A DNA stretch of 64,000 bases, taken from positions 33,956 through 97,955 of the IMG/VR virus record IMGVR_UViG_3300027659_000017. One strand, given 5' to 3'. Shown in pieces: positions 2 through 17,321 of this stretch. The stretch comes from a virus. How positions within the stretch are numbered: position 1 is the first letter of the stretch; the number at the start of each line of letters is the position of its first letter. A program made the position numbers and the translations under genes. A model generated the notes under the pieces. That model saw only the letters and a list, made by a program, of their open reading frames with translations. It was not told where the DNA came from and did no database searches.

Positions 2-3000
2 GGTCAAAGAATAACATCAGAGATTGGTTTGTACGAAGAAGACATCTGTAAGTATAGAGAGATTGTACAGGATCCTTGTTTGAATTTTGATAAAAGATAT
101 CTTATCTCTGGTGCTTCTAGAGAAAAAGAAGATTGTACTTGGCAGGTATACTGGGTAGATGCATTTAATCCAGATAGATTTTTAAATGTTGGTGACCCAC
201 AGACATGGCCAGATGCAAGTTACAACTGGGTAGGTGGTGGAGCAAATAGTATGAACTATTATTCAAATGGTAGTGATAGTACATTTCTATGGCCGGGTGT
301 TAATTGGAATAAAAACATAACAGTAATTAACGACTGTGATTTTGTTACTAATACAAATACATTAAATTGTGATCATATAAGACTTGCTAGGTTAATGGAG
401 ACACCATGTCTTAATTTGACTTTAGGACAATCTGGTGGGACCATGGCCAATGGTACTTATTTTGCAATGATTGCATATTGTATCAAAGGCCAGAAAGTAA
501 CTGACTGGTTTTCCCAAAGTAATTTTCAGTTTATATACAATGTCAATGATTTGTCAGGTTCATTAACACTTGAGGTTAATGCTGATTCAGAAAACTTTGA
601 TGAGTTTATTTTAGCAATTGTTGAAGCTACTAACCAACAGACAGTTGCTTCTCAAATGGGATTCTATTCTACTAAGACTACAAGAATTGCAATTGATCAA
701 ATTAACATTGCTACAGTTAAAATTCCATTAGAGCAGTTACCTATTACTACACCGGTATATGAAACATCAGATCAGATGACTGATGTAAATGGATATCTAT
801 TGAGAGTTGGTCCTAGATCAAAATTTGACTTTAACTATCAACCACTTGCCAATATGATCAGAGCAAAATGGGCAAGTGTAGAATACCCAGCTGATTATTA
901 TATGAAGGGTGGGAATAAAACAAACTATCTGAGAGACGAAGTATATACATTTTACATCAGATGGGTATATGATACTGGAGATAAGTCTGCATCATATCAT
1001 ATTCCAGGTAGAGCACCTAGAAGTTTTAATGTACCTGGTATAGGTTCTAGATTTGAAACAGAGGCTTTAATAGATCCAAATGCTTTAACTATAGATGATC
1101 AAGTATTTGAAGTTTACAATACGGCTTCTATTACCCCGGGAGGATTAACTGGTACAACTACTGATGATGGAGGTACTGTAATTGCAGTAGGGGATATGGG
1201 TTACTGGCAGTCTTCTGAAAGATATCCTGACAACAGACCTGACATTTGGAATCCAAGTGAATATTGTTGGACGGGTGCTGCAGCACAAAATGGTTCTTTT
1301 GATTTATGTGGTAAGAATATCAGACATCATAAGTTTCCAGAAAACTTTATTGCTAATAGTACTTCTACAGATGCAGTACACTTTAGACCAAATGCAAACA
1401 TCCCGACCAATGGTCAAGATTTTGCAATCAGGTTAATGGGTGTATACTTTGAAAACATTACTCTTCCAAAAGATCAACAAGGTAAAGACATCCCTGGTAT
1501 TGTGGGTTATGAAATTCTAAGAGGTTCTAGAGAAGGTAACAAAACTATTGTAGCAAAAGGTATGGTCAACAACTTCCGTACTTTCCAATTAAGAGGAAAG
1601 CTGGCACAAGGAAGAACTGGACTTTATGCTAACTACCCATACAACACAATTGTACCAATTGGAAGTTCTACAGATCCTGATGACCACAACTACTTGTATA
1701 ATGATCCTTACATAAAGAATGAGGACTCAGATAACAATGTGGTTAATCAATCTATACCGTCAGATATCTTTACATTCCATTCCCCGGATACAATGTTCCG
1801 TACACCTTATTTATCTACTACAGAATTTAAGTCTTATGGAATCTTGAGTGGATATGCTGACTTAGAATTCCAGGAACCAAATGGTCATCCTAATTGGAAA
1901 TTGTTAGCAAATGCTGTTGTATTTCCTATGATTGTAGGTGGAGTTGCTGAAGCTATTATTTCTATGTTAGGTAAGAGAACAGTCAATACTCCAAAAGTTT
2001 TAAGTTATACAGAACAATATAGAGGTCTTGCTGGAGTTGGTCCAATTATTTTTGCATCAGGTTCTAGTACTATTCAGAGTTCAACAGCACAAAATACAGC
2101 ACTAGGTTTAATTGGAACAGCAGCAACTGCATACAATACTTTTGTAAATAACTATTACAATGGTCCTGCAACACTTGATGTTGGTTTAATGTTGGCTTTG
2201 GGATATTCAGGTACATTATATGAAGGTGCACTATCAAACTACGTTAATGTAGTAAATACTAATGCTAATTCAGCAGGTATTCCAAAAATTGCAAAATTAG
2301 AAGGCTCATTTGAATTTCCAAAATGGGCATATTTAGATCCAGTAACAAGACTACTTGGTGCAGCAAATCAAATAGCATATTACTTTGCAGAAGGAGCAGA
2401 CATTGCACTAAAAGTGTTTTATGCAATAACACCATATAGACAATATGCTCTACAACAAGTAAGTCATGGGTTCTATGGTAATATGTTTCCAACTTCAGCT
2501 AATGCTCTAAAAAGATTTGACATAGATGATAGTTTTTATATCCGTGATAATATACAAGAGGTGAGTAAATACCAAGATGTAGTTTCCGGAGTATACCGTA
2601 CCTATTCAATCAATAATTTAAAGAGATCAGATGCTGTAGTAGTAAGAACTAAATCCGGACCATATTATAATCCAGCATATCCAACAGGTGTTAATATAGG
2701 TCCTAATCTTATTACATCTGGTATGAGAGATGTTTCTTTGATTACACTTGGTGGGGTAGTTCAATATGATTCAAGTGCGGCATTTTTAACAAATGATCTT
2801 CCAACATTTGATGATGACAAAAAAGATATACCATTCAGTTTATCAATTGCAAGTCATTACGGTGGGTTAAAGACACGAGTAAGAAATCAATATGGACAGG
2901 TAGGAAGTGAAAATGAAATTGTAATTACTACATGTGAGCAAAGATTAAAAGACTATACTTTAGCTGAGACTTCATGGACATGTCCTATTGATTCAATATT

Positions 3001-5146
3001 CTATGAATCTAAAGTAATCATCAGAACTCCATTAGTATTTGGGGGAGATACTTATATCAATAGATATACAGAAAAGAATAATATGATGTTCTTCTATGAC
3101 TGGTTGTATGGACAGCCTGATGGATTTGAATACAACTATTATTTAAGAAGCATGATTCCTCAAGCAAGATTTAAAGCAAATAGTATTGCATATGATACTG
3201 GCTACTTGTCTGAGGTATTTAATTTTGGATCACCATCTATACCTGGTACCGGTGCATTCCCTGGAGCTTTTTATAATTTGGATTACTATGTTAATAGCAA
3301 TAGGTTCTATAATTATACAAATGATGTTTCAGAAGGTAACTGGATTGGTGACAGGTACAGAGGTTTGTGGTCTGTAAAGGAAGCATATTTCTATCTTGCT
3401 AATTCTGGTATCAGAGATTTCTTTGTTGAATCTGAAGTTCTAGTTGACTTTAGAAAACAAAGTATATACGAAGGAGGAAAACATTATGATCCGTATAGAT
3501 ATACGGACTATGTTGCAATGTTTAACATGAATCCAGACGTTATGGGAAAATTGAGTGAGTACATTTATGATTACTCACTTAGTGTATCTAAACTTTACAA
3601 CCAGTATTTTTCTGCGGGAAGTACTCAAGGTAAGTACTATGATCCTAATGTAGCCAAGTTATGTTACACATACTATCCAGATAGAATTATCTATTCATTG
3701 CCTCAACAATATGAAGCAATAAAAGATAGCTGGTTCATTTACTTAATCAATAACTACAAGGAATTCAAAGGACAAATCTCTGGAGTAAAGGCAATCAACA
3801 AAAGTGGTATATTCATTACTTTCAAAAATGAAAGTCCTTTGATGTATCAGGGTGTAGATACACTTGAAACAGATTTGAATACTAAGATTACTATTGGTGA
3901 TGGAGGATTATTCTCACAACCACAACAAGCAGTAATTAATGCTGACCGTGCATATGAATATGGTTCTTCTCAAAATAGATTGTCTGTAATATCTACTCCG
4001 GTAGGTATATTCTACATGTCTCAAAATCAAGGAAGGATATTCTCGTATGGTAGTAATCTGGATGAGATTTCTCAGGCCGGATTGAAATGGTGGTTCATCT
4101 TGTACATGCCTTATAGGCTTACACAAGACTTCCCAGACTATCCTTGGAAAGATAATCCAGTAGCAGGTATTGGATGTCAAGCAACCTATGACAGCACAAG
4201 TACCATTTTATACTTTAGTAAGAAAGATTATCACTTAAGGGATGAGTATAAAGGACGTGTGACTTATCAGCCTATGACGGCAAATGGTTCAGGAGATTAC
4301 TTTATACTTGATGGTCATAAAAACTTGAGATATAACTTGGGAGATCCTCTTATATTTGAGGATGCATCATGGACTATTAGTTATGACCCTAAGAATCAGT
4401 ATTGGATTAGTTTCCATGACTGGCATCCGGATCTAGTTATTCCTACTAAAGATATATTTATCAGTTCTAAGAAGAATACTCTGTGGAAACATAACTATAT
4501 CTGTGATGGCTACTGTAACTATTATGGTGTACAGTATGGCTTTGAACTTGAATTCCCAGTTGTATCCGGTCAAACAGTAATGACTGCTAGATCTATAGAA
4601 TACATATTAGAGTGCTATCGTAGAAATGGTAATAGTTGTATTGACCAGCACCATGTGTTGGATTACAACTTTGACCAGGCTGTGATATACAACTCTGAAC
4701 AAGTATCCGGCTACCTTAACTTGAATCTATATCCTAAGAATGATATAAACCAGTCATTGCAATATCCTAAACTAAACGGGAACCTGAGCTCATATGACAT
4801 CCTTTTCTCTAAAGAAGAAAACAAGTATAGGTTTAACCAGTTCTGGGATATAACAAAGAACAGAGATGAATTCCCTATTGGTTCAAACTATCCACCAACG
4901 GGACCAGTAATTCCAGGAACGACAATACTACAAGGTTCGTACTCTTCTGAGAATACTTGGATCACATCTCAAGATGGTTTTACACGTATACTAAATCCTA
5001 ACAATATGGATTACGGGAAACCTGAATTAGAAAGAAAGAAGTTTAGACATTACTTAAATTTCATAAATTTAAGGAGAGATAAGTGTGACAATGTAAACAT
5101 GATTCTTAAAATGTCAAGTAGTAAAAATCAATTTTCTCCTAGATAA
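2..5146 (+). CDS. Large virion tail protein, crAss-like tail stabilisation/muzzle-type (5'-truncated)
   Basis: The frame is open back to the window edge (GQRITSEIGLY...), so the TTG at 29 is probably not the real start. Aromatic/beta-rich protein of >1700 aa. The C-terminal WTISYDP...WISFHDWHP...LWKHN...CNYYG segment resembles crAss-like stabilisation proteins, and the gene lies upstream of cargo/vRNAP genes. Confidence 0.6.
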   Translation, partial: GQRITSEIGLYEEDICKYREIVQDPCLNFDKRYLISGASREKEDCTWQVYWVDAFNPDRFLNVGDPQTWPDASYNWVGGGANSMNYYSNGSDSTFLWPGVNWNKNITVINDCDFVTNTNTLNCDHIRLARLMETPCLNLTLGQSGGTMANGTYFAMIAYCIKGQKVTDWFSQSNFQFIYNVNDLSGSLTLEVNADSENFDEFILAIVEATNQQTVASQMGFYSTKTTRIAIDQINIATVKIPLEQLPITTPVYETSDQMTDVNGYLLRVGPRSKFDFNYQPLANMIRAKWASVEYPADYYMKGGNKTNYLRDEVYTFYIRWVYDTGDKSASYHIPGRAPRSFNVPGIGSRFETEALIDPNALTIDDQVFEVYNTASITPGGLTGTTTDDGGTVIAVGDMGYWQSSERYPDNRPDIWNPSEYCWTGAAAQNGSFDLCGKNIRHHKFPENFIANSTSTDAVHFRPNANIPTNGQDFAIRLMGVYFENITLPKDQQGKDIPGIVGYEILRGSREGNKTIVAKGMVNNFRTFQLRGKLAQGRTGLYANYPYNTIVPIGSSTDPDDHNYLYNDPYIKNEDSDNNVVNQSIPSDIFTFHSPDTMFRTPYLSTTEFKSYGILSGYADLEFQEPNGHPNWKLLANAVVFPMIVGGVAEAIISMLGKRTVNTPKVLSYTEQYRGLAGVGPIIFASGSSTIQSSTAQNTALGLIGTAATAYNTFVNNYYNGPATLDVGLMLALGYSGTLYEGALSNYVNVVNTNANSAGIPKIAKLEGSFEFPKWAYLDPVTRLLGAANQIAYYFAEGADIALKVFYAITPYRQYALQQVSHGFYGNMFPTSANALKRFDIDDSFYIRDNIQEVSKYQDVVSGVYRTYSINNLKRSDAVVVRTKSGPYYNPAYPTGVNIGPNLITSGMRDVSLITLGGVVQYDSSAAFLTNDLPTFDDDKKDIPFSLSIASHYGGLKTRVRNQYGQVGSENEIVITTCEQRLKDYTLAETSWTCPIDSIFYESKVIIRTPLVFGGDTYINRYTEKNNMMFFYDWLYGQPDGFEYNYYLRSMIPQARFKANSIAYDTGYLSEVFNFGSPSIPGTGAFPGAFYNLDYYVNSNRFYNYTNDVSEGNWIGDRYRGLWSVKEAYFYLANSGIRDFFVESEVLVDFRKQSIYEGGKHYDPYRYTDYVAMFNMNPDVMGKLSEYIYDYSLSVSKLYNQYFSAGSTQGKYYDPNVAKLCYTYYPDRIIYSLPQQYEAIKDSWFIYLINNYKEFKGQISGVKAINKSGIFITFKNESPLMYQGVDTLETDLNTKITIGDGGLFSQPQQAVINADRAYEYGSSQNRLSVISTPVGIFYMSQNQGRIFSYGSNLDEISQAGLKWWFILYMPYRLTQDFPDYPWKDNPVAGIGCQATYDSTSTILYFSKKDYHLRDEYKGRVTYQPMTANGSGDYFILDGHKNLRYNLGDPLIFEDASWTISYDPKNQYWISFHDWHPDLVIPTKDIFISSKKNTLWKHNYICDGYCNYYGVQYGFELEFPVVSGQTVMTARSIEYILECYRRNGNSCIDQHHVLDYNFDQAVIYNSEQVSGYLNLNLYPKNDINQSLQYPKLNGNLSSYDILFSKEENKYRFNQFWDITKNRDEFPIGSNYPPTGPVIPGTTILQGSYSSENTWITSQDGFTRILNPNNMDYGKPELERKKFRHYLNFINLRRDKCDNVNMILKMSSSKNQFSPR

Positions 5147-8100
5147 TGTATAATAAAAAAGTTCTTATTGATGCTCTCAAAACTCTGGGTACACCTTCTA
5201 CACCTAAGAAGTATAACTTCAATGATGGAGGTGCAAAAAATACTGGATTAAATGAGGTACCATACAAACAAGTTAGTGTTAAGCCATCAAATGTTGCAGG
5301 TAAAGGTTTGTTTGCAGATGAGCCAATTAAGGCCGGAGAAATAATTGGTCTTTCTCATATCAAATCTTTTTATGAAAGAGGTGGTCAGAATTATATGAAG
5401 AGTCAAGAGACACCGGTTGTAGGTAAGTATTATAATCACTCTGATGATGCATTTAATGCTGGTTCTATTATTGAAGGTAACAAAAGATATTTAAGAGCTC
5501 TCAGAGATATTGAAGCTGGAGAAGAGATACTTGGTAATTACCGTGAAGATGATGATCCTTCATTGGAAAGTCCAGATGATTTTAAGAGAGGTGGTTCTTT
5601 ACCAAGAATGCCTAGAAAGAAAAACTCCAGAGGGTATTCTAGAAGTTTAGAAGCTACAAATAAGTTCTTTACTGAAAATGCATTCTTTGCCAAACCTAAG
5701 TCAAGAAAGAATAAAGTATATGATCCTAATTCAAAATACTATAGAAAAGGAGGAGCTTCTTCTCCAGAAGAATGGGAACAAGAAATTAGAGCTATAGAAA
5801 GTCAAATAGGAAATCCTAAAAACTGGACTCTAGAGGATCGTAATCTTTTACAAGATAAACTTAATGCTTATAAAAACTGGAGAGAAACAACTCCAGAAGG
5901 ACAAGCTGTTAAAGATTCTCATAATGTACCAGGTGAGTATGAGGCTTTTATACCTGAGCATTTAAACGGAGCTCCTTATAATACATCAGGTCCAAGATAC
6001 ATAGAAGAATCTATGGAACAATATCCTGTTGGTAGTGCACCAAAAGTATATGGGAATGAGCCGGAAGATTATCAAAGATTTTTAGATTACAATCAAACAG
6101 CTCCTGAAAACAGAAGAGGTTATGAAGAGTATAGATATGGAGATCCAAATTCATATGATCACTATGGTATGTGGGATGCTCTTGGTAAACCAAAAGATTT
6201 TCAAGAAGCTCTTCAAATGAATCCTGATTGGACACCAGATGAATATGATGGATCATATCATGGATTCAGTGTTAATCCTAACACAGGTGTGTTTCTTAAA
6301 TCTGGTAAACCTGGATTAAAACCTGGAGATACTACCTGGATGGAAATAGCTGGACATTATCTTAGCCCTAGAGCAGATATAGACACACCAGTATTTGATC
6401 CAGAGATAGGTAGATTTAAATATGTTCCTAATGAAGAATATATTGAAACAAAACTTTCACCAGAAGACATAGACAAGTACGTAAAAGGAGGTTATATTGT
6501 TGAAGACATTTCTGTACCTAAACTTACTAAAGCTAGAACTGGTTTAGAAGTTATTAAAACAGCTTTACCTTTTCTTAAAAAAACTGCACCAACTATGTTA
6601 GATTTAAAAAATCTTCCAGTTGGTTTTAATCCATCTGAACTTTCATTTCCATTATTAATTAATGGTTCAAGTGGTTTTATACATACTGCACCTAACAGAA
6701 AACTTAATGATAATCTTTTTCATTTTGCAGCTAGCATGAAAAACCCATTGGAAGCAGGAAGAGCATTCAATATAATCAATCAAGCTTTTCCGTTTGCCAA
6801 TCCCTCAATATTAGAACCAGCTAGTTTAAGTCTTGACTCTTTGAATCTTTTATTAAACATGGGTCAGAAACGTGATTGGGATATGAGGTATGCTGATCAT
6901 CATATTCCATTAAACTTCTTTTCTGAACATAATGATTTATTTGGTGATCTTGGTAGTACTAGAAGTGCACTACATCAAGCAATAGGTTCACAGTCTAAAA
7001 AAACTGGTAATGAAATGGTAGATAGACTGAATGCATATCTAAATGGAAGAGGGATACAACAGAAAGCATATCTACAATCACATGCTCCAGGATTAAGACA
7101 AATCATGATTCCTAACTTTCAACTAACTAGAAAATATGCTAAAGGAGGAACTAAGAATAATCCACCTGTATTAGGATCTTTACTTAAAGCTGTTACAAGA
7201 TCTAACTATAATCCATTAAGTATACCTATTAAGTTAGCTGGTGAAAAAATTGCTAGAATAGGTCCTTTACCTTATAGAACAAAAGATGAAATAATAAAAA
7301 GTTTAACAGGTAAAATGGAACCGGCTTATTTTGGGCAAACTGGTATTTATGGTTCAGATTCATCATTATTTTGGAATGACCCAGATGGTCCATTAATGAA
7401 GGATATATATGGTCTAGGTAAAAGAGATTTAATAGCTAACTATTTTAGAGGTATTGATACAGGATTCAAACCAATTGAATATGACTTTAATAATGATCCT
7501 GGTCTACAAGCTGCCATAAAACAGTATGGTCCTTTAAAAGCTTATGAACTTTTATCTCAACAAGCTCATGGTGAACCATTAGAAGATGGTCGTATTGGTT
7601 ATGCATTACGTGTGCATAATGATGCTATGAAAAAGTATGGTTTTGATCCAGCTTTGTTTATTAAATATAATGATTGGGACTTTCATAAATTTAATCCTCT
7701 TGGATCTCCAGAATTTATAAAACAAAGTTATCATGATTTGTTTGATAGATATGGACAAGAAACTATTCCAATTGAAATTCAATCTGATGCTTCAAAAGGA
7801 AATCCTGAATTTATGATGGCAGGCAATCCAGTAACTCCAGCAGATAATATTGGAGGTCATATGGGTTTCTTACAAAGAACACCTGAGGAAGAATTTAATT
7901 TTACCACAAGAGATTTGTGGGGATTCAGACCAGAAGCATACAATAGCAAATGGAATATGGATACCAAAATGAAACAAGGCCAAACACAATTGATGGATGC
8001 TTTTGGTAAACCCTTTGTTCTTACACAGACTAATCCTATTCAATTTAACACATATAAGAACTTTAAGAAGAAGTTCTTTAAGAAGGGTGGTGCTAAGACT

Positions 8101-11013
8101 AATCCACCACTTCTTGGTAATATGGCTAAGGCTATACAAAGAGGATACAGCCCTAACTTAGTAAAGTCAATATTTGAGTTAAGTCAGAATGGTCAGAACT
8201 TGCAAGCATTAAATTATCTAAAAAATAATTACCTACGAAATATGGGTTCTTTAATGGATCTACCTGGAGCTGTGCAAGGTTCTACATTAGACTTACCACA
8301 ACTTAATGCACAACAGATAGAAGCATTACTGCATCAGAAACCTATGTTAGAAAGTGATTTTCTAACTCAATACAGTGGGTATAATCCTATACAATATGAT
8401 GGAGGTTTACCAATTGTTACTGGGGGATTGACAGGTCATAAAACTTCATTCCAAAACTTTGACAGAAACTTTAGAGGAACAGGTTTTGGTAATCAAACGG
8501 GTGGTGTATATTTTACTACACAACCAACTGTTGCTGCTGAGAATGCTCAAATTAGTAGTATGGGTGGCTATGGATTTAATCCTAATACACCAACATTTAC
8601 ACCTCATATTTCAGAAGCTATATTTAAAAATCCTGATAAATTTTTACAGTATAATGCACCCATAACAGAAGAATTGGCTAAATCTATTGGAATGATTAAT
8701 GGCATAGATCCAAGAAATAGTGACACATTAGGACAGCTTGAAATTGATCTGAGAAAAAGTTTTTCAAAAACTGATGATTATAGTGATTATGATTTTGCTA
8801 TGAAATCAGCTGCTGATGCTTTAAGAGAAAAAGGAATTGCAGGTTATTTTGATCCAAGTGGTCGTATCCAAGAAATAGTGGCTTTTGATGAAGGTGATGT
8901 AAATAAAATAAAACAGTTTGAACTTTACAAAGATCTTGATGATGCTTTGATTATGGGATATCTGAAAGCAATTTCTAAAACTCCATCAACACAAACTGAT
9001 GCAGAGAAAAAATTGGTTGCTGCATTTGAAGAGTATCTGAAAACTGGTAACAAACAACAACTAATAGATAGAAAGAAAGGTGGTGCACTACCACCATCTC
9101 TATTGAAGACTCTCAAAGGAGTTAGTAAATTGACTCCAGGTAATGCTTTAAGATCTACATTGTACTCTGCTGTTAATCCAGCTAGTTATAACATTCTAAA
9201 AAAAATAAAGGCTGCACCTCTTGAGCTATACAATAACATGATGTACAATGATACTCGTCCCTTTAGAGTAGGTATGAGTTTAAAACATGGGGCTCCTGAA
9301 TTAAGAGACAACATGTTAGAACATGTTCGTATGGATTTAAACCAGTGGAATAAAACTTCATTGGCAGATCAAATGGCTGCAATAAAAAATGCATATGGTA
9401 GCAAGCATTTGAACACATTAGAAGATATTGGAAGAAGAAGATTAGATTCCTGGGCTGTAGGTTTGAAAAGACCACAGGAGCATAATACTTTAGAACAAGT
9501 GGGTGACAATACATTTAGAATGGTTGACACAGAATATACTCCTATGTACTTAAATGAACTTTACAATGATCTATTAGCTACAAAAATTGAATCTGATCCT
9601 ATGGCCAACGGCTTTGGTTCTGTTGTTGATGATGGACAATTCAGTCCACTAGAACAACTTAGTAGAGATCAGTTTAGAGTTAAGACACAATATTTTGCTT
9701 CTAATCCAGCAACAGTTCCGTACAGATTATCAGAAAAAGATAAGATAGGATATCCAAATTGGAATAGAACAAGACATGCACAAGTTGATCCTATGGGTCT
9801 TTTATCTAAGATGACTACAGGTACGGTATATGACAATGACCGTTATGGAGTAATGGGTGGTTACAATTGGAAAATTAATGAACATCCAGAAGGAATGGTT
9901 TTTCAAACCAATGACCTATGGGATTTAAATCCGTTTGAAAAAAGAATAGATCCTATGTTAAATACTGATGCTCTTAAAAATAAGTATCTAAACATGCACT
10001 ATTACAAACCATTCCAAAACTTTGAAGCACTTCGTGCAGTGGGTGGTAAACCATTTAACATACAGAACAATTTCTTGGTAGATCCTGATTCATTTAATGT
10101 ACTAAGACAATGGGCAGAAGGTGGACCATTAAAAGGGGGTCCAGAAGAACCTATAACAGATTGTCCAGAAGGCTACACATATGATCCAGATAAATTGGGT
10201 TGTGTACCAATGTCAAGTGATGTACAAGATCCTGCTCAACAACATATTTCCAACTGGTGGATGAATAGAGAAATAAAATGGCCTGAGAATAATAAAGATT
10301 ATCAAAACAATATGGAACAGATTCTTCCTACATCAAATCCAAATTCTCCTGTTATAGAGCAATTAAACAATTGGCCGGGTTATGTTTATACTGATAATTT
10401 ACCAAGACCAGATGCTGGAGGTACATATGACACTTCAAAAAAAGAACCAAGAATATTTGTAAGGAAAAGTTTTAGTCCTGAAATGAGATTGCAAACTGAA
10501 ATACATGAAGGAACTTCACATGCCAATGCTCCAGTAGCAGATCAATTATTTGATATGCATAATAGGATTATGAAACAAAATCTTATTCCAATAAATAAAG
10601 ATTGGTCACCAGCACAAAAAGATTTTTACAATTATGTGACAGCACCAGATGAAGATAACTACCACTCTTATCTTATGAATGCCAGAAAGATATTTAATGT
10701 AGATCCTAAACAAGTTGTAACTGAATCTGATATAAATAAATGGAGACAACAAGCTGAAGAAAGTGGAATGATGGATAGAGAGAGTCCTAACTTTAATGAA
10801 GAGATTTACATTTTATTTAAATTCGCAAAAGATCCAGCATCATTGACCAATATATTTAATTACATGGCAGAAAATAAAAATGAATCTGCTGAAGAAGGTC
10901 CACAGTATACTAAAGATGGTGGTAGTATTGACTACGAATTAGGTGACACAGTAGATAAAGCTACTATGGAAAAATTAAAAGAATTAGGTTATACCTTTGA
11001 ACAAATTAAGTGA
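5146..11013 (+). CDS. Modular polyvalent virion-associated protein (SET domain, ART-like domain, two DxW(D/G)xxP/GKPF modules, zincin-like domain; xKGG linkers)
   Basis: 1955-aa ORF with TAATG overlap to the upstream gene. SET motifs GKGLFA...YNHS...RDIEAGEEILGNY; ART-PolyVal-like GH..F..F....GTG....GGVYFT...EIVAF; HEGTSH. Confidence 0.75.
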   Translation: MYNKKVLIDALKTLGTPSTPKKYNFNDGGAKNTGLNEVPYKQVSVKPSNVAGKGLFADEPIKAGEIIGLSHIKSFYERGGQNYMKSQETPVVGKYYNHSDDAFNAGSIIEGNKRYLRALRDIEAGEEILGNYREDDDPSLESPDDFKRGGSLPRMPRKKNSRGYSRSLEATNKFFTENAFFAKPKSRKNKVYDPNSKYYRKGGASSPEEWEQEIRAIESQIGNPKNWTLEDRNLLQDKLNAYKNWRETTPEGQAVKDSHNVPGEYEAFIPEHLNGAPYNTSGPRYIEESMEQYPVGSAPKVYGNEPEDYQRFLDYNQTAPENRRGYEEYRYGDPNSYDHYGMWDALGKPKDFQEALQMNPDWTPDEYDGSYHGFSVNPNTGVFLKSGKPGLKPGDTTWMEIAGHYLSPRADIDTPVFDPEIGRFKYVPNEEYIETKLSPEDIDKYVKGGYIVEDISVPKLTKARTGLEVIKTALPFLKKTAPTMLDLKNLPVGFNPSELSFPLLINGSSGFIHTAPNRKLNDNLFHFAASMKNPLEAGRAFNIINQAFPFANPSILEPASLSLDSLNLLLNMGQKRDWDMRYADHHIPLNFFSEHNDLFGDLGSTRSALHQAIGSQSKKTGNEMVDRLNAYLNGRGIQQKAYLQSHAPGLRQIMIPNFQLTRKYAKGGTKNNPPVLGSLLKAVTRSNYNPLSIPIKLAGEKIARIGPLPYRTKDEIIKSLTGKMEPAYFGQTGIYGSDSSLFWNDPDGPLMKDIYGLGKRDLIANYFRGIDTGFKPIEYDFNNDPGLQAAIKQYGPLKAYELLSQQAHGEPLEDGRIGYALRVHNDAMKKYGFDPALFIKYNDWDFHKFNPLGSPEFIKQSYHDLFDRYGQETIPIEIQSDASKGNPEFMMAGNPVTPADNIGGHMGFLQRTPEEEFNFTTRDLWGFRPEAYNSKWNMDTKMKQGQTQLMDAFGKPFVLTQTNPIQFNTYKNFKKKFFKKGGAKTNPPLLGNMAKAIQRGYSPNLVKSIFELSQNGQNLQALNYLKNNYLRNMGSLMDLPGAVQGSTLDLPQLNAQQIEALLHQKPMLESDFLTQYSGYNPIQYDGGLPIVTGGLTGHKTSFQNFDRNFRGTGFGNQTGGVYFTTQPTVAAENAQISSMGGYGFNPNTPTFTPHISEAIFKNPDKFLQYNAPITEELAKSIGMINGIDPRNSDTLGQLEIDLRKSFSKTDDYSDYDFAMKSAADALREKGIAGYFDPSGRIQEIVAFDEGDVNKIKQFELYKDLDDALIMGYLKAISKTPSTQTDAEKKLVAAFEEYLKTGNKQQLIDRKKGGALPPSLLKTLKGVSKLTPGNALRSTLYSAVNPASYNILKKIKAAPLELYNNMMYNDTRPFRVGMSLKHGAPELRDNMLEHVRMDLNQWNKTSLADQMAAIKNAYGSKHLNTLEDIGRRRLDSWAVGLKRPQEHNTLEQVGDNTFRMVDTEYTPMYLNELYNDLLATKIESDPMANGFGSVVDDGQFSPLEQLSRDQFRVKTQYFASNPATVPYRLSEKDKIGYPNWNRTRHAQVDPMGLLSKMTTGTVYDNDRYGVMGGYNWKINEHPEGMVFQTNDLWDLNPFEKRIDPMLNTDALKNKYLNMHYYKPFQNFEALRAVGGKPFNIQNNFLVDPDSFNVLRQWAEGGPLKGGPEEPITDCPEGYTYDPDKLGCVPMSSDVQDPAQQHISNWWMNREIKWPENNKDYQNNMEQILPTSNPNSPVIEQLNNWPGYVYTDNLPRPDAGGTYDTSKKEPRIFVRKSFSPEMRLQTEIHEGTSHANAPVADQLFDMHNRIMKQNLIPINKDWSPAQKDFYNYVTAPDEDNYHSYLMNARKIFNVDPKQVVTESDINKWRQQAEESGMMDRESPNFNEEIYILFKFAKDPASLTNIFNYMAENKNESAEEGPQYTKDGGSIDYELGDTVDKATMEKLKELGYTFEQIK
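5272..5547 (+). other. SET (lysine methyltransferase) domain within CDS 5146..11013
   Basis: VKPSNVAGKGLFADEPIKAGEII (motif I), GKYYNHS (NHS motif) and LRALRDIEAGEEILGNY (GEEL..Y motif) match the canonical SET signature. Confidence 0.85.
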
Positions 11014-14000
11014 TGGCAAAATATAGAATAACAAGTATTCCTCAATCATTACCACAAGCTCGTAAAGGAGGGTCATTAAAGTACAAGAAAGCAAAATCTG
11101 GTAAATTAAAAAATTTCTTCTTTGGTAATGAAGGTGATTATGATAATATTGCCATGGATATGTTCAATACGGATATGATGAATGGATCTCCTAGAACTGC
11201 TGCCGGTAATCAACCTATGGTAGAAGTAGAAGGTGCACCACAACCATCATACTGGAATATGCAGCAAGGATGTCCTCCTGGAAAATTCTCTTACAATGGT
11301 CAATGTTTTACAGAAGCCGAGTATGTAGAGTATTCTAAAAGAGAAATGGAAGAGTACGAAAGAAGTATGAACCAGAAGAAAGCTGCTAGTCAACAAAGAT
11401 TTGAAGGTATAGTTCAAGAAAACCAACAACGAGCACAAGAACAAAGTACTAGGTTAAATCAAGAAGAAACTGAAAGATACTATACTAATTTCAAAAACTC
11501 AAAGAAGTCTGATAAGATAGATCCATACATGTCCATTCCTAATTTGAATATGGATAGAATGGTGGATATGGTTGATCCAGAAGGTAATCCTGTTTTAGGG
11601 GAGGATGGTAAGCCACAGCAAGAAACTTTAGGAGATCAATTAAAGAAATCTTTTCTTATTAACGTTACAGAGAATGGATATACACAACTGTATCCAAAAG
11701 ATATTGTCCATGACAGAATCGTTAAGCATGGTTTTCAAGCCGATCAGTTTAAGAATATCTGGGGATTAGATCCTAAACAAGTTAAAGAACAACTTGGAGA
11801 TATAATGAAACTGGCTGATGAACAGTACACTAATACTGTTTTGAACAAGGTTGCTAAAACTGCTATAGAAGAAGGTAAGTCACCGGAAGAAGTAATCAAA
11901 TCTTTACCTACATCATGGGGAGGAAGTGAATTGACTAAATATATTAAGCCATCTCAAGAAGAGGTTGATAAAATCTATTCTGAATTTGTTAAACAAAGTT
12001 TAGAAGGTCTTCAAAAACAAATAGGTGTTAAGGAAGAGGATGGAATGCTGCGGTATGACAGAAGTAAAAAAGCAGATAAACCAAAACTTGATTTTGATTT
12101 TGAAAGTGATATCTATTTAAATGCATATGATGATGATGGTACTTTAACAGCACAAGAAGTAGATCCTGTAAAAGCATATGCTCAGAAGTGGATAGCTTCA
12201 GGAAAGACTGCTAAAGAAAGATATGAAAGACAAATGCAAGTTGATGCTATCAACCGTAAAGATTATTCAAAAACATATGATGAAGCAGTTAAAAATGATA
12301 AAACATTTAAAGAAACATTTAATATAGATGATATTAATTTAAATGCATCCGGAGAGGATATAAATAATATGCCTCCTTCAGATAGAATGCAAACACTTAA
12401 ACTTAATGAGACACGTAGACTTAATGAGATCAATCAAAGCAATTCTGAGAGAGCTGAAGAAAATATAGGAGATAATGCTGTACAAACTAAACGTACTGAA
12501 GATTTAATAAAACTTACAGGTTTTACAGATGACTTTAATAAATTTATGCAAGAACGGCAACGTTTAACTATGTATGGTGTATATAAAAATGCATTAACAG
12601 ATTCAGGAATATCCTATGCAGATAAAGCTAAAGTTCTACAACATCTCAATGACAACAAAGGTGACTTAGCATATAACTATTTGTTTGACAGAAGCCGTGA
12701 TGCTTCTGATCCCTTATCACAAAATAATTATAATTCTGAACTAGGTAGCTTAATGGGTGGAGAAGGTTATGGAAATCTTTTGACACAGCCAAAAATTCAA
12801 CAAGGAAAAGCTCCAGGTGCCGATATTGGTGTAGGTGCTAAAACATGGGATGTCTTAACCAATTGGGGTGATGCTGCTTATCATGGATTAAATGCTTTTA
12901 TAGGTAATAAAGATTTTAGTGATAACATGTGGAGTATTCCAGGTAAATCTTTAAATGAAGTAAAAGCTGATGAAGAAAGATTAGGTATAGATCTAAGAGG
13001 TAACGATCAATTTAATGCTTCACTTGTACCTGAACTTTTAAATAAGTTAAATCCTTTGCATGCAGTAGATGAAATCTATAGAGGTTATAAAAGAAATGGA
13101 CTTAAAGGAGCTTCATCTAAAGCAAGTAAAGCAGCATGGGATGCTACTGAAACTGCAGCAATGTTTATTCCAGGGGGTCAAGGAATTAAATTACTACGTC
13201 AAGCATCTCTATTAAACAATACTCTAAATAAAGGTAGTCTATTAAATAAAATTTCTAAAGGTTTTAATGGACTACAAAGAGGAATTAATAGTCTAGGTTT
13301 GCCTGGACAATATGTAACAAACTACTTTAACAAAAGTCTACCAGCATTTGCTTTTGATGCAGTAAGACCATATGGTGAATTTCATGAAGGTTTTGAAAAT
13401 TTAACAGAAGGAAAAACAACAGAAGGTTTAAAAAACTTGGGATGGGGAACACTTGGTATAACTCCATATATAAGTAAAATACCACGTATTGAATACCAAA
13501 CTCCATCAGGTAGAACATTTGGTATTGGTAATACAGGAACAACTTGGACTACTGCACAAAATGAAAAACAATTTGCAGACTTAATGAAATCTAGTACACT
13601 TGATGATTTAAAAAAAGTTTATTCAGAAGAAAATCAAATTGCAGAAGCTGAACAAGCACTTAATAATGGAACAGCATTTCCAAATTATACATTTACACAT
13701 CCGTTAAAAAGACAAGCTCAACTTTCTGATGATTTTCAAAATATGACTAATCAAGAATTTGCTTTCAAAAATTTAGGATTTGCTCCAAAACCAGGAGGAC
13801 CTTTTCAACTTGGAACTTTCAATAGCCCATTAAAATATTCAGGAAAACTCGGACAGTTACAATTTGGTACAGGAAAATTTTTTCCAGCTAAACTTCAGGG
13901 AATAGAATACAGACCTAATATACAGTATGATACTGCACCTATGACTATTGGTTTTAGAAATGGAGGTTCTATTCCTAAAGCTAATGTAGGTATGATTGTT

Positions 14001-17000
14001 AGTGGACTGCAAAGTTTAGGTAACCCTACAAAGATGAAAACTGGTGGAGCATTACCACCACCTAACTTAGGTAAGATAGTAAAGGTAGCAAACAGTTTAG
14101 CAATTCCTACAAAACAGATGGTAAAGTCGTTACCAAGTATGGGTAATCAACCTGGTTTAGAATGGTTACAAAGGTGGTATTCAAGTCCAGAGTTAGCAAC
14201 AAGAATTTCAAACACTATTGATCCATCTTCTGCTTTTGATCTTAAAAAACATAGTGTTTCTTTAGAAAAGTTAATGGCAGCACAGCCTAAAACATATTCT
14301 CAATTAGCAGCAAAAAACGGTTTACTACAAACTATTCCTTATTATATAGGGACAGGTGGTTTGTACTCAGGTGGTAATTTATATATCAATCGTCTTTTAT
14401 CTAAAGCAAATCAAGAGTCTTTTACAGCTCATGAAGGAACTCATTTATATGATGATCCAAGACATGCTGTAACCCAACCAACGGTAACACAAGAATGGAT
14501 AGGACCTGATGGACAGAGAAGAGTTCAATTTGATGAAAATTCACTTGTCCAAGATGATTATCATTTAGATGCAAATGGAAGACCTACCTTTTTTAATCAA
14601 AAAGAAACCGAAATGTTATTAAAACCTTTTGGTCTTTCTAAACCTCCTTTGTATCCAAACAAAATGGATCTTTTTGGTAATGATTATTTTAGAAGATACT
14701 ATACACATCCAGATGAAATTCATGCTAGAATGAACCAAGGTAGATTTATGCTTAATAAATCTCCAGAAGATCCTTTTACATTAGATGATTTTAATAAAGT
14801 ACAAACTTTAGAGGACTGGTTTGGAATGGGTAAACATATAACAGATAAAAATGCTTTTCTGGATTTGATGAATAAATTCTATGGAGTTGTCCCTGCTGCA
14901 ATAGTAGGTTCTCAACTACTAGATGAAGACACAGAACAAAGAAAAAAAGGAGGATCTACACCAAAAGCTAAAGCAAATCCACCAAGAGTATTGGGAAGAA
15001 CAGTTCAAAGTATTAGTAGTATGTTGAAACCTACTTCTCAATTTAGAACTACCATGAATGCATTAGAAAATTTTGGAAGTACTTTACCTACAAATATGTC
15101 TCTTTTGAATTCAGTTGCTAAACCATTCCAAGGTATTAATAATCCTGTCATGGATTTAAATGTACAAGGCTTACTGAAGTCTCCAACTGATTTGGGTGGT
15201 ACAGGAATAATAGGTTATGGAGATGACATACATAAAGGTGATCCATGGTATCAAATAGATCCTGCAGATTATGGAGGAAGTGAGACATGGAGACAAGAAG
15301 GAAGAACTGATGCTGAAGGATCTATAGAAAGATATCTTGGTAATCTAAAACCATATGGACCGGATGCATTTAATAATATAGGAAACTTTGATTTTGAGAT
15401 AGGATCAGATGGATGGAAAGCAAGAAATGCAATGATGGGAATGGCCAGTCCACTGTACCAACCTCAGAAAACTCTAGGCACAGGAGATTTTTATACATTT
15501 GATGAGTTCAGTAATTTAGTTCAAAAACAAACACAGTATTTAAATGATAGAGCTGCTTTTGATGAAATGTATCCTGAAGACCCAGGTATGAGAATGTGGA
15601 ATGCTTTACGTGGTGATACACAAAGAGATGAAATGTTTGCTAATTTATTTCCCAATTCTGGTATACAAAACTTTAAACAAAAGTTTTATACTCCAGAACT
15701 TTTAGATCTTATGAAAAAAACAGATCGAGATGAAAAAGGTAGAAATTTATATGATCAATTGGTAAGTAATACAAACATGGGTGATAATAAAATGTTAAAC
15801 ATGAGGTCTTTAAATAGTGTAACAAAAGGAGAAGATACTTTACCTTCTACATACAAAGACTTAGTTGAGTACTTAAAACCTGATAGTTATTTATATACGG
15901 CTCCAGCTAAAGAGGTTGTTGGTGAAATGAGAGGAAGTCTTGGACTAAAATTAGAAGACATTAATAATGCTACACCAGAGCAACTTGAAAAATGGAAACA
16001 AGAAATTATTAAAAAAATGTATGAACAAGCTAAAGAAAGATGGGACAAAGATTCAACTATTCCTTTATCTGGTTATGATGCATATGAAAAATTCTTTAGT
16101 AGGTCAGGTTCTAAGAATAAACTTGGAGGAGCTATACCAAAAGCACGACTGGGGTTAAGTGTAATTGGAAAGAATGTAAATAACATAGAAAACATTCTTA
16201 ATGGTACAGCTAAATCAACAAATCTATTAAGACTAGTTGATAGAGCTATTACTCCGGTTGGTTATGGAATAGTTGGAAAAATGTTAGCATCTCCATTTAC
16301 TTATATTAAACCTTATGTGCCGCAAACTTATGGTCTTAAGAATAGATATGATGCATGGAATCTATATAATCAAATACAACCAAAATATGGAGGCCTGAGT
16401 CTTAATGAAGATGGTACAGTTGCGGTAAAAAACTTTGATATTTCAAAACCTATATTAGATCAAATAAGAAATTCAGAAAGAAACTCTTTTGAAACTGAAG
16501 AATTCAATAAGATGAATGGACATTTGGCAATTAACTTTGGTGGTGTTCATGGAAATGGTCTTGTAGCTAAAGGAGTTGATGATACTGGAAGACAGTATAT
16601 GGATTTTACTGATACATGGGATTTACACCCTTTACAAAGATTTGGTAATTTGTTACCCAAGCCAATAAGAAATATTGAAGTTGGTCAAGTAACAGGTGGT
16701 AAACCTTTTGATCTTCGTAATAGAATTTACTTTGATGGAGAAGGAAATTATTTTAATCAAGATGGTACTCCATTAATTACATATAGTAAAGAAGTACCAG
16801 GATTTGACTATACAAATGGAGCATTACAGGTACAGCAAAATGCATCAACAAGAAATATAAAAGAAATTGAATTACCAGATAATAAAAATGTTGAGTTTGT
16901 TGCAAGTTCAGGTGTACCTGAAAATGAATTTCAACAAGTAAATGAAGAATTTAATGATGCTTATCACCAGTCTAATTTAAACAAATTAGCTACAATAGGT

Positions 17001-17264
17001 ATTGGTTTGGGAATAGGTGGTATTAATTCATTTATTGATTATCAAAATAACAAACCTATGCTAATGATTGATGTAAGAACTGGTAAGGTTGTTACTGTTA
17101 CAAAAGCTGAGATGGAAGCAAACCCAGGTAGATACATTAGTACCAAAAATCTAAAACGTGGTGGTGCTATTTCCAAAAAGAAAACAGGTGGTGTAGTAAC
17201 TGAGCTCACTAAAAAAGAAATAGAGCAATATGTTAAAGATGGCTATATCATTGAAGATTACTAA
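11013..17264 (+). CDS. Modular virion-associated protein (coiled-coil N-half, HExxH zincin module, DTWDLHP/GGKPF module; xKGG linkers)
   Basis: The ATG at 11013 overlaps the upstream TGA (TGATG). HEGTH at 14430-14444 with downstream EIHAR. Modules are paralogous to those in 5146..11013. Confidence 0.7.
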   Translation: MAKYRITSIPQSLPQARKGGSLKYKKAKSGKLKNFFFGNEGDYDNIAMDMFNTDMMNGSPRTAAGNQPMVEVEGAPQPSYWNMQQGCPPGKFSYNGQCFTEAEYVEYSKREMEEYERSMNQKKAASQQRFEGIVQENQQRAQEQSTRLNQEETERYYTNFKNSKKSDKIDPYMSIPNLNMDRMVDMVDPEGNPVLGEDGKPQQETLGDQLKKSFLINVTENGYTQLYPKDIVHDRIVKHGFQADQFKNIWGLDPKQVKEQLGDIMKLADEQYTNTVLNKVAKTAIEEGKSPEEVIKSLPTSWGGSELTKYIKPSQEEVDKIYSEFVKQSLEGLQKQIGVKEEDGMLRYDRSKKADKPKLDFDFESDIYLNAYDDDGTLTAQEVDPVKAYAQKWIASGKTAKERYERQMQVDAINRKDYSKTYDEAVKNDKTFKETFNIDDINLNASGEDINNMPPSDRMQTLKLNETRRLNEINQSNSERAEENIGDNAVQTKRTEDLIKLTGFTDDFNKFMQERQRLTMYGVYKNALTDSGISYADKAKVLQHLNDNKGDLAYNYLFDRSRDASDPLSQNNYNSELGSLMGGEGYGNLLTQPKIQQGKAPGADIGVGAKTWDVLTNWGDAAYHGLNAFIGNKDFSDNMWSIPGKSLNEVKADEERLGIDLRGNDQFNASLVPELLNKLNPLHAVDEIYRGYKRNGLKGASSKASKAAWDATETAAMFIPGGQGIKLLRQASLLNNTLNKGSLLNKISKGFNGLQRGINSLGLPGQYVTNYFNKSLPAFAFDAVRPYGEFHEGFENLTEGKTTEGLKNLGWGTLGITPYISKIPRIEYQTPSGRTFGIGNTGTTWTTAQNEKQFADLMKSSTLDDLKKVYSEENQIAEAEQALNNGTAFPNYTFTHPLKRQAQLSDDFQNMTNQEFAFKNLGFAPKPGGPFQLGTFNSPLKYSGKLGQLQFGTGKFFPAKLQGIEYRPNIQYDTAPMTIGFRNGGSIPKANVGMIVSGLQSLGNPTKMKTGGALPPPNLGKIVKVANSLAIPTKQMVKSLPSMGNQPGLEWLQRWYSSPELATRISNTIDPSSAFDLKKHSVSLEKLMAAQPKTYSQLAAKNGLLQTIPYYIGTGGLYSGGNLYINRLLSKANQESFTAHEGTHLYDDPRHAVTQPTVTQEWIGPDGQRRVQFDENSLVQDDYHLDANGRPTFFNQKETEMLLKPFGLSKPPLYPNKMDLFGNDYFRRYYTHPDEIHARMNQGRFMLNKSPEDPFTLDDFNKVQTLEDWFGMGKHITDKNAFLDLMNKFYGVVPAAIVGSQLLDEDTEQRKKGGSTPKAKANPPRVLGRTVQSISSMLKPTSQFRTTMNALENFGSTLPTNMSLLNSVAKPFQGINNPVMDLNVQGLLKSPTDLGGTGIIGYGDDIHKGDPWYQIDPADYGGSETWRQEGRTDAEGSIERYLGNLKPYGPDAFNNIGNFDFEIGSDGWKARNAMMGMASPLYQPQKTLGTGDFYTFDEFSNLVQKQTQYLNDRAAFDEMYPEDPGMRMWNALRGDTQRDEMFANLFPNSGIQNFKQKFYTPELLDLMKKTDRDEKGRNLYDQLVSNTNMGDNKMLNMRSLNSVTKGEDTLPSTYKDLVEYLKPDSYLYTAPAKEVVGEMRGSLGLKLEDINNATPEQLEKWKQEIIKKMYEQAKERWDKDSTIPLSGYDAYEKFFSRSGSKNKLGGAIPKARLGLSVIGKNVNNIENILNGTAKSTNLLRLVDRAITPVGYGIVGKMLASPFTYIKPYVPQTYGLKNRYDAWNLYNQIQPKYGGLSLNEDGTVAVKNFDISKPILDQIRNSERNSFETEEFNKMNGHLAINFGGVHGNGLVAKGVDDTGRQYMDFTDTWDLHPLQRFGNLLPKPIRNIEVGQVTGGKPFDLRNRIYFDGEGNYFNQDGTPLITYSKEVPGFDYTNGALQVQQNASTRNIKEIELPDNKNVEFVASSGVPENEFQQVNEEFNDAYHQSNLNKLATIGIGLGIGGINSFIDYQNNKPMLMIDVRTGKVVTVTKAEMEANPGRYISTKNLKRGGAISKKKTGGVVTELTKKEIEQYVKDGYIIEDY

Positions 17265-17308
17265 ACTTTATAAGTTTATCCATTAAATTAAATTTTAGTA
17301 TATTTATA
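17262..17308 (+). promoter_or_regulatory. Conserved intergenic element copy 1 (TAAACTT-TAT-AAGTTTA hairpin + AAATTTTAGTATATTTA box), putative late promoter
   Basis: Gapless 34/47 identity with 24881-24927. The box ends 15 nt before the ATG at 17322. TAnnTTTA resembles the Bacteroidota -7 element TAnnTTTG. Confidence 0.55.
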
Positions 17309-17321
17309 TATATAAGAAAAT

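Follow-up and report, generated by a model that had tools for sequence, protein, structure and literature searches.

A SET-domain module in a putative cargo protein of a divergent crAss-like phage

The 64,000-nucleotide (nt) stretch analyzed here (the window; positions 33,956 to 97,955 of the IMG/VR virus record IMGVR_UViG_3300027659_000017) carries, directly downstream of the gene for a tail muzzle protein, a long open reading frame (ORF) for a 1955-residue modular protein. As judged by the agreement of a hidden Markov model (HMM), the predicted fold and the sequence motifs, residues ~41-135 of this protein are a true SET domain. We think it on balance probable that the domain is an exchangeable effector cassette on a polyvalent cargo protein, which would be packaged in the virion, ejected, and active in the next host cell. 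The layout of the gene is listed below, with nucleotide coordinates referring to the window and residue numbers to the 1955-residue protein.

5146..11013, + strand: 1955-residue modular (polyvalent-type) putative cargo protein P0001, ~220 kDa, with modules shuffled among 120 homologs
5146..5232, + strand: conserved N-terminal tag, residues 1-29, MYNKKVLIDALK..., which ends in FNDGG (40 aligned relatives)
5218-5232, + strand: FNDGG, residues 25-29, in frame
5233..5595, + strand: predicted SET methyltransferase cassette, residues 30-150, ~13.4 kDa, no Cys; Pfam core at residues 52-132, confident fold at residues 41-135
5299..5316, + strand: GKGLFA, the GxG motif for S-adenosylmethionine (SAM) binding, residues 52-57; G54 invariant, G52 in 99% of 92 relatives
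5431..5442, + strand: YNHS, the NH(S) SAM-binding and pseudoknot motif, residues 96-99; N97 and H98 invariant
5518..5541, + strand: GEEILGNY, residues 125-132; E127 and the catalytic Tyr132 invariant
5557..5595, + strand: conserved post-SET tail and junction (P138, L140, E141, P143, D145, F146, then K/R-G-G), from the family alignment
5581-5595, + strand: FKRGG, residues 146-150, in frame
5596..5754, + strand: very basic module M2, residues 151-203, net charge +12, occurring with or without SET
10141..10923, + strand: C-terminal, likely zincin-like module, residues 1666-1926, with HEGTSH (HExxxH) at nt 10504-10521
10924..11010, + strand: conserved C-terminal tag, residues 1927-1955, after TKDGG, kept in relatives

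The span for which a SET methyltransferase was originally predicted (5272-5547) corresponds to residues 43-134, i.e. the SET core of the 1955-residue protein. The motifs quoted in that prediction, namely: FNDGG, GKGLFA, YNHS, GEEILGNY and FKRGG, all lie in frame in the same ORF. A search with the Pfam model PF00856, which had been proposed as a check, exceeds its gathering cut-off of 22.4 bits with the whole protein (30 bits) and more clearly with residues 1-185 (37.3 bits, E 3.9e-9), well beyond what chance would give; the relatives described below score 26-48 bits. PHROG 28741, a family of unknown function, also matches (E 4.5e-6), and the Pfam scan of the 1955-residue protein returns no family besides SET at E<=1. 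Similarity to PDB sequences is weak by phmmer (E 0.11 for EZH2 and 0.37 for PBCV-1 vSET). In these alignments, G52-K-G54 is paired with the GxG motif and N97-H98-S99 with NHS, and Y132 matches the catalytic Tyr in both vSET (‘...ISYGDD’) and EZH2 (‘...FDYRY’).

The structural comparisons agree with the HMM result. An AlphaFold2 model of the SET region, built on 40 family sequences, has a predicted local distance difference test (pLDDT) score of 83-95 across residues 41-135. A Foldseek search with this model yields 221 PDB chains at E<=1e-3 and, among the matches listed, all are SET or PR-domain proteins; these include P. falciparum 4rz0, SETD8, vSET (3kma; template modelling (TM) score 0.69 on the target), S. 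pombe Set7, MLL1, EZH2 and Legionella LegAS4. VIA-align returns 245 chains at Z>=8, with Z values of 9.6-11.4 across 84-109 aligned residues (EZH2, 11.4; P. falciparum 4rz0, 10.7; vSET, 9.9), and the superposition onto SET structures extends through residues 132-149. Thus, the assignment that was to stand or fall with an HMM or structural match has both, and the structural neighbours are SET proteins. No cysteine occurs in the 121 residues that the two GG junctions enclose, and the domain is therefore a minimal SET that lacks zinc modules of the pre-SET or post-SET type. Because every defining feature that can be tested in this way is present, we regard it as a member of the SET superfamily.

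The conservation of the active site was determined from 92 SET modules taken from the 120 best relatives, which are ~40-99% identical. S48, G54, G68, H71, N97, H98, E127, Y132, L140 and F146 are invariant, while G52 and F56 are conserved in 99%, G125 in 94% and S99 in 85% of the modules. All 92 modules retain the catalytic Tyr and the NH pair, as would be expected if SAM binding and catalysis were under purifying selection. Judged from this conservation, the SET enzyme is apparently catalytically competent. With PF00856 above its cut-off, matches in fold and invariant catalytic residues, the complete minimal SET that had been read from the motifs is upheld. The conserved post-SET tail may, by analogy with other minimal SET enzymes, close the cofactor and lysine channel.

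These data also bear on the idea that the SET region is a non-catalytic β-clip module, kept in the cargo protein for binding or structure. The lack of a post-SET zinc module, the presence of F103 in the window copy at a position where 82% of relatives have P, and a sub-threshold match to SAF (a β-clip family) at residues 114-136 would all fit such a module. However, GxG, NH and the catalytic Tyr are kept in 92/92 relatives (G52 in 99%) despite ~40-60% identity, and the significant structural neighbours listed are all SET or PR-domain proteins, which makes a non-catalytic role most improbable. SET8 and SET7/9, like the phage SET, have no pre-SET or post-SET zinc modules. The Phe/Tyr-switch position was also considered as a predictor of mono- versus tri-methylation and was dropped, the alignment around NHS-x-D-x-P-N being ambiguous.

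Among known systems, the phage SET works most like the chlorovirus PBCV-1 enzyme vSET (A612L; 1n3j/3kma). Both are virus-encoded minimal SET domains of ~120 residues that lack the zinc modules and share the motifs G-x-G-hFA, NHS and GEEI..Y, in line with the Z and TM values given above. vSET is carried in the virion and acts on host chromatin proteins. It differs from the phage domain in being a stand-alone dimeric methyltransferase for histone H3K27, encoded by a eukaryotic virus, whereas the phage SET is a cassette within a 1955-residue protein, would face a bacterial host without histones, and is only ~26% identical to vSET in the phmmer alignment. A second parallel is Legionella LegAS4/RomA (5czy; Foldseek rank 31), a SET methyltransferase that is sent into a target cell by an injection device. 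In that case, the targets are eukaryotic histones reached via type IV secretion, whereas the phage SET has a presumed bacterial target and would use the phage tail.

The carrier gene lies in a block of virion genes. The source is a 97,955-bp phage genome with a crAss-type TerL, portal and major capsid protein, in which nine giant genes (1062-3623 residues) stand in a row on the + strand and replication genes are on the - strand. Its nearest TerL proteins are those of Flavobacterium phages Fpv20/21 and Bacteroides crAss-like phages, at ~25% identity. The three genes directly upstream of the 1955-residue gene match CrAss_Ring_2 (78 bits), CrAss_Ring_1 (44 bits) and crAss_MUZ (41 bits). Because the muzzle protein and ring proteins 1 and 2 match Pfam crassvirus families, we place this divergent phage in the crAss-like assemblage. 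Two neighbours in the window serve as landmarks:

2..5146, + strand: muzzle gene (5′ end before the window; full protein 1814 residues), Pfam crAss_MUZ PF25731, cut-off 27 bits
35644..46515, + strand: crAss-like virion RNA polymerase homolog, 3623 residues, phmmer match to PDB 6VR4 (phi14:2 gp66), E 1e-10

Homologs of the muzzle protein include proteins labelled ‘structural’ in Flavobacterium and Cellulophaga phages. The start of the 1955-residue gene overlaps the muzzle stop (TAATG), and its stop overlaps the start of the next giant gene (TGATG). The alignment of the polymerase homolog to 6VR4 spans the catalytic DFDID (DxDxD) motif at nt 42901-42915, and the homolog is far longer than gp66 (2194 residues). 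The SET domain is therefore embedded, as the original prediction had it, in a giant protein within a virion-gene block.

The genes of crAss001 run in the order R1 (gp43), muzzle (gp44), cargo C1 (gp45), cargo C2 (gp46), followed by the RNA-polymerase giants; mass spectrometry of virions showed the cargo proteins to be present, and C1 is partly in the tail, poised to exit first (PMC10172136). Since C1 follows the muzzle gene directly in crAss001, the 1955-residue protein is its positional equivalent. Both genes stand directly after the muzzle gene and upstream of the RNA-polymerase giants. The proteins themselves differ: gp45 (90.8 kDa) lacks an enzyme domain and is predicted to have a transmembrane helix (PMC10172136), whereas the 1955-residue protein is ~220 kDa, consists of shuffled enzyme-like cassettes and has no hydrophobic or transmembrane helix (best 19-residue Kyte-Doolittle mean, 0.86).

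In order to follow the carrier gene across related phages, we used several searches. A word-index search gives 229 relatives of 1075-3422 residues, most with PF00856 and some with an added Phage_lysozyme, Amidase_2, VanY, LysM or ART-PolyVal domain, and no close stand-alone relative was found when the same search was made for proteins of 66-212 residues. Exhaustive HMMER searching with the SET module alone gives 398 representatives of 50%-identity clusters, 128 of them at E<=1e-10. The matches are nearly all long proteins, and SET begins within the first ~200 residues in ~92% of the 150 listed. In addition, IMG/VR was scanned with patterns that lie outside SET (M2 and the end tag), which yields 61 loci on contigs of up to ~122 kb. 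The gene order ring2-ring1-muzzle followed by the putative cargo gene is found in 49/49 loci with full coverage of the ring genes, and the other loci agree as far as their DNA reaches. SET is present in 30/61 loci, always as a single copy and always in the gene right after muzzle.

When the presence of SET is mapped onto a 50-tip tree built from the three conserved proteins encoded upstream, at least 6 changes are needed, compared with 16.8 for shuffled labels; SET is thus inherited within clades yet has been repeatedly gained or lost. At the same locus and in the same polypeptide, relatives carry Phage_lysozyme (L016, L025), Amidase_2 (L023, 61 bits) or ART-PolyVal (L020, 50 bits). At L033:9965-10513, a natural 183-residue protein right after the muzzle gene, the shortest such form observed, consists of SET, M2 and the end tag only. 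SET-less relatives (L040-L070, e.g. L047:9735-10000) have an unrelated conserved module of ~60 residues in the SET slot, with the motif GQW..PG..TRIPS..ITM.GV.YPV...DYVDEYP. Among 185,579 species genomes, just 2 short contigs of metagenome-assembled genomes match the family, which is therefore essentially phage-only. The ring and muzzle families also mark L002:13995-15652 (Pfam crassvirus families).

The fixed position of the gene is relevant to whether the protein enters the virion at all. It might instead be an unpackaged, late cytoplasmic multi-enzyme protein, with its synteny to cargo genes a coincidence, and such a protein would explain why no homology was found to crAss001 gp45 or gp46 and why a transmembrane helix is lacking. 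We consider this very unlikely, since the position right after muzzle is fixed in the 61 loci, the giant genes bear a structural annotation in Flavobacterium phage FPSV-S29, which is related, and the peptidoglycan hydrolase and ART-PolyVal domains of relatives are typical of ejected proteins (PMC5512222). The proposal that the enzyme is delivered by the virion is backed by inference from the synteny (after ring and muzzle, in the C1 slot) and from the lysozyme, amidase and ART-PolyVal domains of relatives; the absence of detected homology to gp45 speaks against it. The host is probably a member of the Bacteroidota. As evidence on the host, the Bacteroidota -7 promoter motif TAnnTTTG was dropped, since the window shows no enrichment (75 copies against 80 expected).

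The 1955-residue protein is built of blocks that recur in relatives in varying order and combination. In BLAST comparisons, these comprise residues 1-152, 147-208, ~275/303-431, 432-668, 679-986, 1007-1314, 1311-1662, 1653-1954 and 1923-1954. As many as 70% of the BLAST break points lie <=20 residues from a [YF]x[KRD]GG site, compared with 19% for random positions. GG sites occur at residues 28, 149, 202, 448, 667, 981, 1312, 1659/1664 and 1925, and the junction consensus across the family is [YFM]-[KQR]-[KD]-G-G. The linkers flanking SET, which had been noted as a feature of the domain, are kept by the family (among the 92 relatives, F146 in 100% and G149/G150 in 88%). [YF]x[KRD]GG junctions bound shuffled cassettes in three successive giant genes (window 5146-21431); they may be cleavage sites, recombination joints or linkers. 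The two giant genes that follow the carrier gene (11010-17264, 2084 residues; 17322-21431, 1369 residues) have no Pfam or PHROG match and carry the same GG junction motif as the 1955-residue protein.

The pieces on either side of SET are conserved in their own right. In the N-terminal tag, M1, N3 and L14 are invariant and K4, K5, V6, I8 and D9 nearly so among the 40 aligned relatives, and the tag is kept in relatives without SET too. No piece of the family is better conserved or shared more widely than M2 (consensus ...KKNSKAYSRSLEATNRFF...KPKSRKNKIYDPNAKYY-x-GG).

In its architecture, the protein resembles the polyvalent proteins of Iyer et al. 2017, which are giant multi-domain proteins of the late or packaging region that join effector enzymes (PMC5512222). 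The ART-PolyVal, lysozyme and amidase domains of relatives are a further point in common, and the paper also describes the HExxxH variant (PMC5512222); the C-terminal, likely zincin-like module has HExxH or HExxxH. It differs from them in its short conserved [YF]x[KR]GG junctions and in having no match to MPTase-PolyVal. In short, the system works most like vSET, is placed like crAss001 C1 and is built like the polyvalent proteins.

The basic module and the junctions raise the question of where SET would act. One possibility is that the enzyme is active in the cell that produces the phage and, instead of host proteins after injection, methylates virion or cargo proteins of the phage itself during assembly (e.g. 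at the Lys-rich junctions or M2), where it could tune processing, packing or protease resistance. The location of the gene within the late structural operon, the Lys-rich K-K/R-G-G junctions and the +12 M2 that adjoin SET, and the automethylation known for many SET enzymes are consistent with such a role. However, the ~half of the lineage without SET conserves M2 and the GG junctions just as well, so that these do not depend on it, and AlphaFold placed no M2 in the SET groove (pLDDT there, 54-70). Activity in the producer cell is thus unlikely, and M2 as a cis-substrate of SET, which we had considered, was dropped as the principal explanation owing to its equal conservation without SET.

We therefore return to SET as an effector cassette that is active in the next host. 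The cargo protein would be made late, alongside the tail ring and muzzle proteins, would probably be packed in the capsid or tail cargo space together with other giant proteins, and would probably be pushed into the host ahead of the DNA. SAM is confined to the cytoplasm, and for this reason SET would act inside the newly infected cell. There it could stay tethered to the cargo protein or be freed at the GG junctions on either side, and in the first moments of infection it would methylate lysines of host proteins or of phage proteins injected along with it. A SAM-needing enzyme that is encoded in a late operon would be most useful if carried into the next cell, from which we infer that the timing favours delivery.

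Several observations weigh against delivery to the next host. The SET pseudoknot domain would need to be unfolded for passage through the tail. The post-SET tail, which is expected to close the lysine channel, is modelled by AlphaFold at low confidence (pLDDT 54-69). SET is dispensable, about half of the lineage being without it. Searches with Pfam and tblastn detect no sequence homology to crAss001 gp45 or to any Pfam crAss cargo family, remote homology being possible. Finally, tblastn with the whole 1955-residue protein has no match among 50,697 phage records, and no relative has been cultured.

A more specific form of the proposal is possible but doubtful in our view. This large uncultured crAss-like lineage would inject a lysine methyltransferase before its DNA, with SET cut free at the GG junctions, perhaps by the protein's own zincin-like module, and host nucleoid, translation or defence proteins would be methylated as an early takeover or counter-defence.

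The C-terminal module that might supply such a protease has an invariant H-E. Many relatives have HExxH (HEKGH, HENNH, HEFGH), while the window copy has HEGTSH, and an HExxxH variant is described for polyvalent-protein metallopeptidases (PMC5512222). The AlphaFold model of the module has a pLDDT of 81. It gives no significant match in a Foldseek search of the PDB, and the Pfam MPTase-PolyVal model does not match the module. In a wide VIA search, ~45 of the top 50 chains are zincins, yet with Z<=5.5; the list includes neprilysin, PepO, Zmp1, anthrax LF, PPEP, PprI, thermolysin and Wss1. A zincin-like fold is thus likely from the models, though not established, and the module is a candidate processing protease or effector.

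We found no published description of a SET domain in phage cargo, virion or polyvalent proteins, including in PMC5512222, PMC7824862 and PMC10172136. In the passages that a term search of the 2017 polyvalent-protein paper (PMC5512222) showed, ‘set’ occurs as an ordinary word only, and lysine or protein methylation is absent; a 2021 jumbo-phage survey contains no ‘SET domain’. An apparent ‘SET domain’ match in the crAss001 paper is the ‘C2-set’ immunoglobulin (PMC10172136). What is new is the carrier of the SET enzyme and the context in which it occurs. The enzymes that phages are known to inject ADP-ribosylate, acetylate, phosphorylate, cleave or hydrolyse host targets, and we know of no bacteriophage shown to deliver a protein lysine methyltransferase. 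If the more specific proposal is correct, SET would be a counterpart of chlorovirus vSET that acts on a bacterium, and the first effector delivered by a phage to methylate proteins.

With its active site intact, SET recurs as an optional payload of the putative first cargo protein across an environmental crAss-like lineage that is widespread. Relatives use the same slot for ADP-ribosyltransferase or cell-wall hydrolase cassettes. Such a pattern supports the idea that crassvirus cargo proteins are modular carriers of effectors as well as components of a channel or polymerase. As a small (13 kDa) and easily expressed domain, SET is a candidate for a new class of phage effectors, and its natural series of presence and absence helps to ask about targets.

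The SET domain had also been called unusual for a tailed phage. This holds for the 50,697 deposited phage records, in which a SET search gives only three weak matches, including Prochlorococcus phage P-SSM7 and a marine virus. It does not hold for the present uncultured lineage, in which SET is common (398 cluster representatives; 30/61 loci), and stand-alone SET proteins occur elsewhere. Uroviricota SET clusters are listed in the ESM Atlas, as a lead only (score below 0.9). On IMG/VR contigs of 62-217 kb (L003, L004, L006 and L007; near 10001-10378), stand-alone SET proteins of 150-197 residues are encoded that have DIEAGEEI. Because such proteins are found on other viral contigs, SET enzymes may be commoner in phages than annotation suggests.

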